In this document: piece by piece, positions 49,785 to 49,810 of the stretch
Layout of the letters: the number at the start of each line of letters is the position of its first letter
Numbering within the stretch: the first letter of the stretch is position 1
Source of the DNA: Escherichia coli
GTDB lineage: Bacteria > Pseudomonadota > Gammaproteobacteria > Enterobacterales > Enterobacteriaceae
Length of the DNA: 64,000 nt
Direction: 5' to 3' (one strand)
NCBI RefSeq assembly: GCF_003334335.1
Contig: NZ_QOWQ01000012.1
The notes under the pieces: generated by a model
The model's database searches: none
What the model saw: only the letters and a program-made list of their open reading frames with translations
What the model was told of the DNA's origin: nothing
Translations under genes and position numbers: made by a program

Positions 49785-49810
49785 ACGTCGCATCTGGTCA
49801 GATGCGACGT
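49785..49810. repeat. perfect 12-bp-stem palindrome between convergent thiI and yajL (REP-like / possible terminator)
   Basis: acgtcgcatctg-gt-cagatgcgacgt, followed by a REP-like gccgcatccgac. Confidence 0.55.

Follow-up and report, generated by a model that had tools for sequence, protein, structure and literature searches.

A three-arm, REP-derived stem-loop element between the convergent genes thiI and yajL of Escherichia coli, a probable barrier at the 3' ends of both mRNAs

The spacer between the convergent genes thiI and yajL of Escherichia coli contains a perfect palindrome that is, as read from its sequence, one face of a decayed z2-type REP together with an inverted copy of a REP head. 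The palindrome and a third arm beside it form a three-arm, U-less stem-loop element, and this element probably protects the 3' ends of two convergent, Rho-terminated mRNAs. The first-pass annotation had offered a REP variant, a protein-binding palindrome and an RNA stability element as readings of the palindrome; the last of these appears to be its most likely role. Past annotation this matters little, and a role as a 3'-end cap would be ordinary. The locus adds one more worked case of a convergent pair, both of whose transcripts are apparently Rho-terminated, sharing a single U-less stem-loop region. It also illustrates how a REP in decay can persist in the form of a perfect palindrome, which generic REP or terminator finders misclassify or miss.

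The palindrome and its third arm

Coordinates refer to the window, that is, the whole stretch of 64,000 nt of E. coli DNA that was analysed (assembly GCF_003334335.1, contig NZ_QOWQ01000012.1). A K-12 coordinate is the window coordinate plus 393225, and the window is identical to MG1655 (NC_000913.3) over 438500-445500. The first 60 nt of the MG1655 mak segment (410500-410560) have no exact match in the window at about 17275-17335, with the offset unchanged; the window may not be MG1655 throughout.

The thiI-yajL spacer is 53 bp long and lies between the convergent stop codons at 49770-49772 (plus strand) and 49826-49828 (minus strand). As the first-pass annotation had described, this spacer, flanked by both stops, holds a perfect palindrome at 49785-49810, ACGTCGCATCTG-GT-CAGATGCGACGT, with 12-nt arms that are 100% complementary and 2 nt between them. 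Its remark that the T-run is on the wrong side is likewise borne out, as T5 at 49780-49784 precedes the palindrome on the plus strand and the palindrome is followed by TT alone and then GCC. A third arm at 49813-49824, unnoticed in that annotation, pairs with the right arm of the palindrome. Because of this arm and a REP-type CTAC at 49826-49829, the feature extends past 49785-49810, and the three arms together fill the spacer. Its parts are as follows:

49770-49772, plus strand: thiI stop codon TAA, 12 nt upstream of the palindrome
49775-49780, plus strand: UGUGGU, which pairs with GCCGCA (49813-49818) in the thiI-sense RNA fold and encloses the palindrome hairpin
49780-49784, plus strand: T5 run 5' of the palindrome, equal to A5 3' of the palindrome on the minus strand
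49785-49796: arm 1, ACGTCGCATCTG, left arm of the palindrome, resembling the terminal 12-13 nt of an inverted z2 REP (…CGTCGCATCAGGC)
49799-49810: arm 2, CAGATGCGACGT, shared central arm, pairing with arm 1 (perfectly) or with arm 3
49813-49824: arm 3, GCCGCATCCGAC, pairing with 49797-49808
49797-49829, minus strand: putative degenerate z2-type REP, GTAG-T-GTCGGATGCGGC-AAAC-GTCGCATCTGAC, with a 5-nt deletion relative to z2 REPs
49826-49829, minus strand: GTAG (CTAC on the plus strand), a REP hallmark, whose TAG is the yajL stop codon at 49826-49828

The palindrome is not a chance product. Folded as RNA, the 26-mer reaches -16.9 kcal/mol on either strand (z = -5.6 and -6.7), a value equalled by none of 200 shuffles. 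If loops are limited to 10 nt, the window has two inverted repeats whose stems reach 12 bp or more, against 0.04 expected, and only 8 of 200 simulations had any such hairpin; stems of 10 bp or more number five, against 0.77 expected. These expectations come from first-order Markov simulations of the window and refer to perfect stems.

Arms 2 and 3 pair imperfectly on the plus strand, and on the minus strand the pairing is rescued by G·U pairs; a repeat search recovered it as 49797-49806 with 49815-49824. In yajL-sense RNA the arm3/arm2 helix, GUCGGAUGCGGC-AAAC-GUCGCAUCUGAC, has 12 bp including two G·U pairs, amounts to -20.4 kcal/mol alone and is the minimum-energy structure in a 71-nt context. 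The corresponding helix of thiI-sense RNA, in which each G·U is replaced by A·C, is weak for that reason (-12.9 kcal/mol). When 59 nt of the minus strand are folded, the palindrome prevails there too, and the two helices therefore compete closely on that strand. The thiI-sense fold with the UGUGGU/GCCGCA enclosure totals -27.2 kcal/mol, and the enclosing pairing is absent from the folds of E. albertii and of a fourth Escherichia lineage (L009).

A short ORF at 49774-49914 (46 aa, TTG start) was set aside as a mechanical ORF antisense to yajL. An Rfam search of 49300-50300 at E <= 10 returned chance-level matches only.

Descent from a z2-type REP

Read on the minus strand, GTAG-T-GTCGGATGCGGCAAACGTCGCATCTGAC corresponds to a z2-type REP minus 5 nt, with the AA/GC bulge gone. 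A 17-mer of the locus, GATGCGACGTTTGCCGC, matches three true REPs in the window with at most two mismatches, against 0.03 expected, namely those at 17857 and 17959 with one mismatch each (16/17) and that at 15843 with two. The arm sequence is likewise at most two mismatches from REP cores elsewhere in the window. With a single z2 REP as the nhmmer query, the locus ranked fifth, right behind four true z2 REPs, at an E value of only 0.19 (128 kb searched). In REP orientation, GTAG-T-GTCGGAT-[5-nt gap]-GCGGCAAACGTCGCATCTGAC of the locus aligns with GTAC-GCCGGATAAGACGCGGCAGGCGTCGCATCCGGC of the z2 REP at 15828. About 27 of 32 aligned positions match, with two indels (counted by eye), and GTAG, both arms and the loop are present.

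The 5-nt deletion removes AAGAC, and therefore the AA/GC bulge is lost and the stem is continuous; the GC of the former bulge now pairs with GC, and the stem has two G·U pairs. Directly after the REP on the minus strand comes CAGATGCGACGT, which matches the head of an inverted z2 REP, CTGATGCGACGC, at 10 of 12 positions. Arm 1 may be the remnant of an abutting inverted REP or, equally possibly, a local inverted duplication. A REP that abuts an inverted REP head is palindromic by construction, which would account for the perfect pairing of arms 1 and 2.

REPs of E. coli carry a conserved GTAG 5' of the palindrome and, in the stem, an AA/GC bulge that is required by TnpA-REP (Corneloup et al., 2021; PMC8266576). 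At the locus, GTAG stands 5' of the stem on the minus strand (49829-49826), 1 nt away. Like a z2 REP, the locus has GTAG by an intergenic palindrome, apparently z2-like stem arms and loop, and a position just past a stop codon in a convergent spacer. Unlike a z2 REP, it is shortened by the 5-nt deletion to 28 nt (against 29-37 nt for the imperfect palindromes of E. coli REPs), lacks the AA-GC mismatch bulge and has one extra nucleotide between GTAG and stem; nor is it dispersed in high copy, the variant being found at one locus per genome. It also differs from the REP/iREP junctions of BIMEs, of which the true BIMEs at 17853-18047 served for comparison. Instead of two complete inverse REPs and a linker, the locus has only 12 nt of a possible partner, abutting and without a linker. 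The 17-mer matches, the GTAG tail and the roughly 27 of 32 shared z2 positions give sequence support to the earlier suggestion of a REP variant; the locus is, however, a degenerate, bulge-less relic and not a canonical REP.

Canonical REPs and BIMEs in the window lie at 5755-5792, 15828-15862, 17853-18047, 37744-37842, 43895-43929 and 51974-52057. Among them, two z2+y pairs separate mak from araJ, and yajQ is followed by a REP pair; the copy at 43895-43929 has GTCCAG and no GTAG. The K-12 RefSeq feature table has no repeat feature at the locus, and because it omits REPs altogether, including the mak-araJ BIME, it is uninformative on the locus either way. The RepRanger supplement has no entry for the thiI-yajL locus.

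Occurrence in E. coli and its relatives

The locus is found once per genome, at thiI-yajL, in 5425 of 5426 complete E. coli genomes. A 55-nt query hits a median of 2 places per E. coli genome, the second presumably being the palindrome's own reverse match. A genome-wide recurrence of the same palindrome, as envisaged in the first-pass annotation, was not found, there being no second exact copy in E. coli genomes; the link to REPs rests on similarity instead. About 2339 genomes carry the K-12/EDL933-type allele at an identity of at least 99%, and about 2775 carry a second major allele with linked changes at 49782, 49784, 49810 and 49813 (90-95% identity). The allele CGCTTACC occurs in about half of E. 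coli genomes. Every E. coli allele sampled has an identical 24-nt core, the stem measures 12 bp in K-12, 13 bp in UTI89 and 11 bp in KSC207, and the T5 run is polymorphic (TTTTT, TTTTA or TTGTA).

Two sequences deserve separate mention. A metagenome contig (L179) has another E. coli-type allele, TTTGTGTTTTTTA, in which a G-to-T change at window position 49778 gives six T's before the palindrome and not five. Escherichia coli B95.deltaA (NZ_CP085842.1; L003:330-345, corresponding to window 49826) has an 8-bp insertion that turns the yajL stop from TAG into TAA and keeps the C-terminus. We take this strain to be an engineered UAG-free derivative, and for that reason the insertion looks like an engineering scar and not natural variation.

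All three arms are kept in E. albertii, E. whittamii and the fourth Escherichia lineage, while the centre of the palindrome (C-GTGTA-G, CTGGCCAG and C-GTGCCG-G, respectively) and the flanks vary. A metagenome scan for the core with a variable centre gave 120 loci, of which 7 were Escherichia thiI-yajL and 113 were unrelated, with different flanks. Most of the matches are GC-rich hairpins without relation to the locus, such as 18 specified bases should yield by chance in a collection of this size, and hence there is no dispersed family.

In other Enterobacteriaceae, the orthologous spacer is differently occupied. Full REP pairs are present in Salmonella, Enterobacter, Leclercia, Trabulsiella and C. 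koseri, Klebsiella has a canonical A-tract/hairpin/T-tract terminator (AAAACGGCAACC…GGTTGCCGTTTT), and some taxa carry inserted genes between thiI and yajL. All 47 short orthologous spacers reach z <= -2 in the thiI sense, and 44 of the 47 do so on the other strand; their sequences are unrelated.

Several Enterobacter spacers (L027, L032, L035, L054, L059, L062 and L073) contain a different GC-rich repeat, GGGGAGTGCGGCCTGATGCCCTCACCCCGGCCCTCTCCCACGGGGAGAGGG, which resembles enterobacterial 'box C'-type repeats; a canonical terminator comes after some of them. At 23 of 80 loci (L012 to L086; e.g. L012, L014, L017 and L028), thiI is not within 1.2 kb downstream of yajL, and about ten more have spacers of 190-1125 bp (L011, L021, L023, L029, L036, L051, L058, L064, L065 and L071). 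The missing thiI and the long spacers make the junction appear an insertion hot spot outside Escherichia. One locus, L086 (CACSKA010000001.1, titled Chryseobacterium sp. 18061), encodes a YajL with 84% identity to that of E. coli, in which it resembles the Enterobacteriaceae loci; mislabelling or contamination of the assembly is the probable cause.

Rho-dependent termination and a barrier to exonucleases

Two Rho termination regions have been reported on either side of the spacer, one at 443228 on the plus strand, antisense to yajL (Rho score 3.64, p = 1.2e-6), and one at 442717 on the minus strand, antisense to thiI (score 4.94, p = 6.4e-8) (Adams et al., 2021; PMC7815308, supplementary file 2). 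They lie 193 nt (plus) and 293 nt (minus) beyond the palindrome. The Rho scores were recomputed from the four coverage columns, and with bicyclomycin the downstream/upstream coverage is 103/96 on the plus strand and 94/99 on the minus strand. The lack of a coverage drop under bicyclomycin argues against efficient intrinsic termination in both directions. These calls rest on about 100 reads in 800-nt windows, so that positions are coarse, and the plus-strand signal may partly be another antisense transcript.

Rho-dependent transcripts are known to end at steady state just past stable U-less stem-loops that resist PNPase and RNase II, and a quarter of these stem-loops are annotated REPs (Dar and Sorek, 2018; PMC6061677). 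The locus is like them in having, on both strands, a stable U-less hairpin immediately past the coding region and bicyclomycin-sensitive read-through, with Rho regions, beyond it. It departs from them in that a single DNA segment would, by means of overlapping alternative helices, serve two convergent mRNAs. In the probable course of events, polymerase would find no usable U-tract on either strand and read through both ways, and Rho would stop it a few hundred nucleotides on, inside the antisense of the opposite gene. Trimming by the 3'-to-5' exonucleases PNPase and RNase II would next proceed as far as the hairpin, to which the thiI mRNA and the panE-yajL mRNA would owe both the position and the protection of their mature 3' ends. 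The predicted 3' ends are at about K-12 443036-443041 for thiI and at about 443005-443009 or 443017-443021 for yajL.

Term-seq 3' ends at the palindrome, which the first-pass annotation had named as a check, did not appear, as thiI, yajL and all positions 44300x-44305x are missing from the curated tables of Adams et al. The SMRT-Cappable-seq and TERMITe supplements also have no entry for the locus, and a literature search on thiI with yajL returned a DJ-1 review only and no report on a terminator. Because the accessible tables list no 3' end at the hairpin, the exonuclease barrier is a role that we infer.

As a secondary possibility, the hairpins might damp translation termination. Reduced translation has been reported for REPs that lie no more than 15 nt from a stop codon (Liang, Rudd and Deutscher, 2015, as summarised in PMC12306157). 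The distances from stop codon to hairpin at the locus, 12 nt for thiI and, for yajL, 1 nt (arm3/arm2 hairpin) and 15 nt (palindrome), are within the range given in that summary.

Selective constraint and the case for a relic

An unlikely alternative to the barrier is that the element has no function and is a decayed REP junction kept by descent in Escherichia. A REP origin alone accounts for the palindrome without any function, the base of the stem is not fixed in E. coli, whose alleles have 11, 12 or 13 bp, and a 3' end at the hairpin is absent from the curated Term-seq and TERMITe tables. The conservation data can be read in both directions. Pairing holds in 94.1% of the alignment cells for the palindrome and in 97.5% for the arm3/arm2 helix. 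As neither helix shows any compensatory double change, they provide no covariation evidence, in keeping with a relic. An apparent C-G to U-A swap in E. albertii, seen by eye, depends on gap placement and was not counted. The 36 arm positions, fixed beforehand on the basis of the K-12 structure, are not conserved significantly beyond the neutral expectation (P = 0.04-0.45), which again suits a relic. A 28-nt core, chosen post hoc, is the same in E. albertii (0 differences), whereas the flanking fourfold sites diverge by 24% (P = 4e-4).

Against a relic, the 24-nt core is invariant in the sampled E. coli alleles, and the invariant columns cluster in a mildly unusual manner, with two runs coinciding with the arms (P about 0.03). 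Further, the short orthologous spacers of 47 other taxa all hold a stable hairpin, from which it can be argued that a stem-loop is needed at this position. Both transcripts moreover appear Rho-dependent and would otherwise be without a 3' protective structure. Overall, the evidence for selection, drawn from these comparisons, is modest.

Weak intrinsic termination

It is distinctly unlikely that the palindrome is a weak Rho-independent terminator of thiI, in which the GC-rich hairpin of 11-12 bp followed by UUU releases some polymerases. The hairpin itself is strong (-16.9 kcal/mol), so that one half of an intrinsic terminator is present; the U-tract is not. TransTermHP requires a tail score of <= -2.5, and at least 5 T in 8 was also demanded of a terminator. 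In the thiI direction the K-12-type 11-bp stem, followed by TTTGCC, scores -2.47 at best and so just misses the threshold, whereas the KSC207-type allele scores -1.05. As the allele CGCTTACC, with this latter score, is carried by about half of E. coli genomes, the U's of the supposed terminator are not conserved. On the minus strand the score is -0.9 or weaker in K-12 and no better than -1.72 in other alleles, and with A5 after the hairpin there is no counterpart in the yajL direction. The consensus scan does not call the hairpin, and with the tail scores missing the threshold this agrees with the first-pass view that it is not a textbook intrinsic terminator.

The true terminators of the window at 27705-27732 and 53551-53574 pass the tail score easily, the latter in both directions. 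The locus shares its position and a similarly strong hairpin with bidirectional intrinsic terminators such as that of the Klebsiella spacer and those at 27705 and 53551. It differs from them in reading T5-hairpin on the plus strand and hairpin-A5 on the minus strand, with tail scores that fail on both. Mixed cases of weak intrinsic and Rho termination have been noted (Dar and Sorek, 2018; PMC6061677) and would suit a weak terminator, but when Rho is inhibited, downstream coverage in the thiI direction equals upstream coverage (103/96).

Alternative helices, operators and REP activity

An elaboration of the barrier which we consider very unlikely is that the three-arm layout acts as a strand-specific, translation-sensitive switch, giving the two convergent mRNAs different, regulated 3' ends. 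By the G·U asymmetry, the arm3/arm2 hairpin would be good only in yajL-sense RNA, while the arm1/arm2 palindrome would form in both RNAs. At the yajL UAG, 1 nt away from arm 3, a terminating ribosome would melt that arm and leave arm 2 to pair with arm 1. Whether yajL is translated would in this way decide the structure that protects the 3' end and, perhaps, the access of Rho, and one 40-nt DNA segment would serve the 3' ends of both mRNAs. Interest in the locus would rise only if the alternative helices respond to translation or set different 3' ends per strand.

It is hardly credible that the palindrome is a double-stranded DNA operator for a dimeric protein on the 12+12 dyad, for all its perfect dyad symmetry and a core conserved within Escherichia, as the site lies between convergent stops with no promoter to control, the conserved 10-nt half-sites stand 6 nt apart in E. 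coli and L009 and 5 nt apart in E. albertii, around centres that differ in sequence, no second site exists in E. coli genomes and the half-site is REP stem sequence. The only promoter-like match, at 49811-49839, is at chance level and was rejected. The earlier suggestion of a protein-binding palindrome accordingly finds no support, for want of promoter context, a constant half-site spacing among Escherichia species or a second site.

An active REP or BIME, serving as a substrate of the TnpA-REP (RayT) transposase or binding gyrase or IHF, is just as improbable: GTAG adjoins a z2-like stem, but the AA/GC bulge is replaced by Watson-Crick GC/GC, the type of correction by pairing that severely affected TnpA-REP activity in vitro (Corneloup et al., 2021; PMC8266576), and the single-copy variant has neither a full partner REP nor BIME linker motifs.

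Besides the thiI-yajL palindrome, the window has four further perfect inverted repeats, at 1234-1263, 27705-27732, 37871-37897 and 53551-53574, with stems of 10-13 bp. That at 1234-1263 has a 13-bp stem, TAATGCCCGTCAAGGATTTGACGGGCATTA, and its terminator tail score passes weakly, on the minus strand only.
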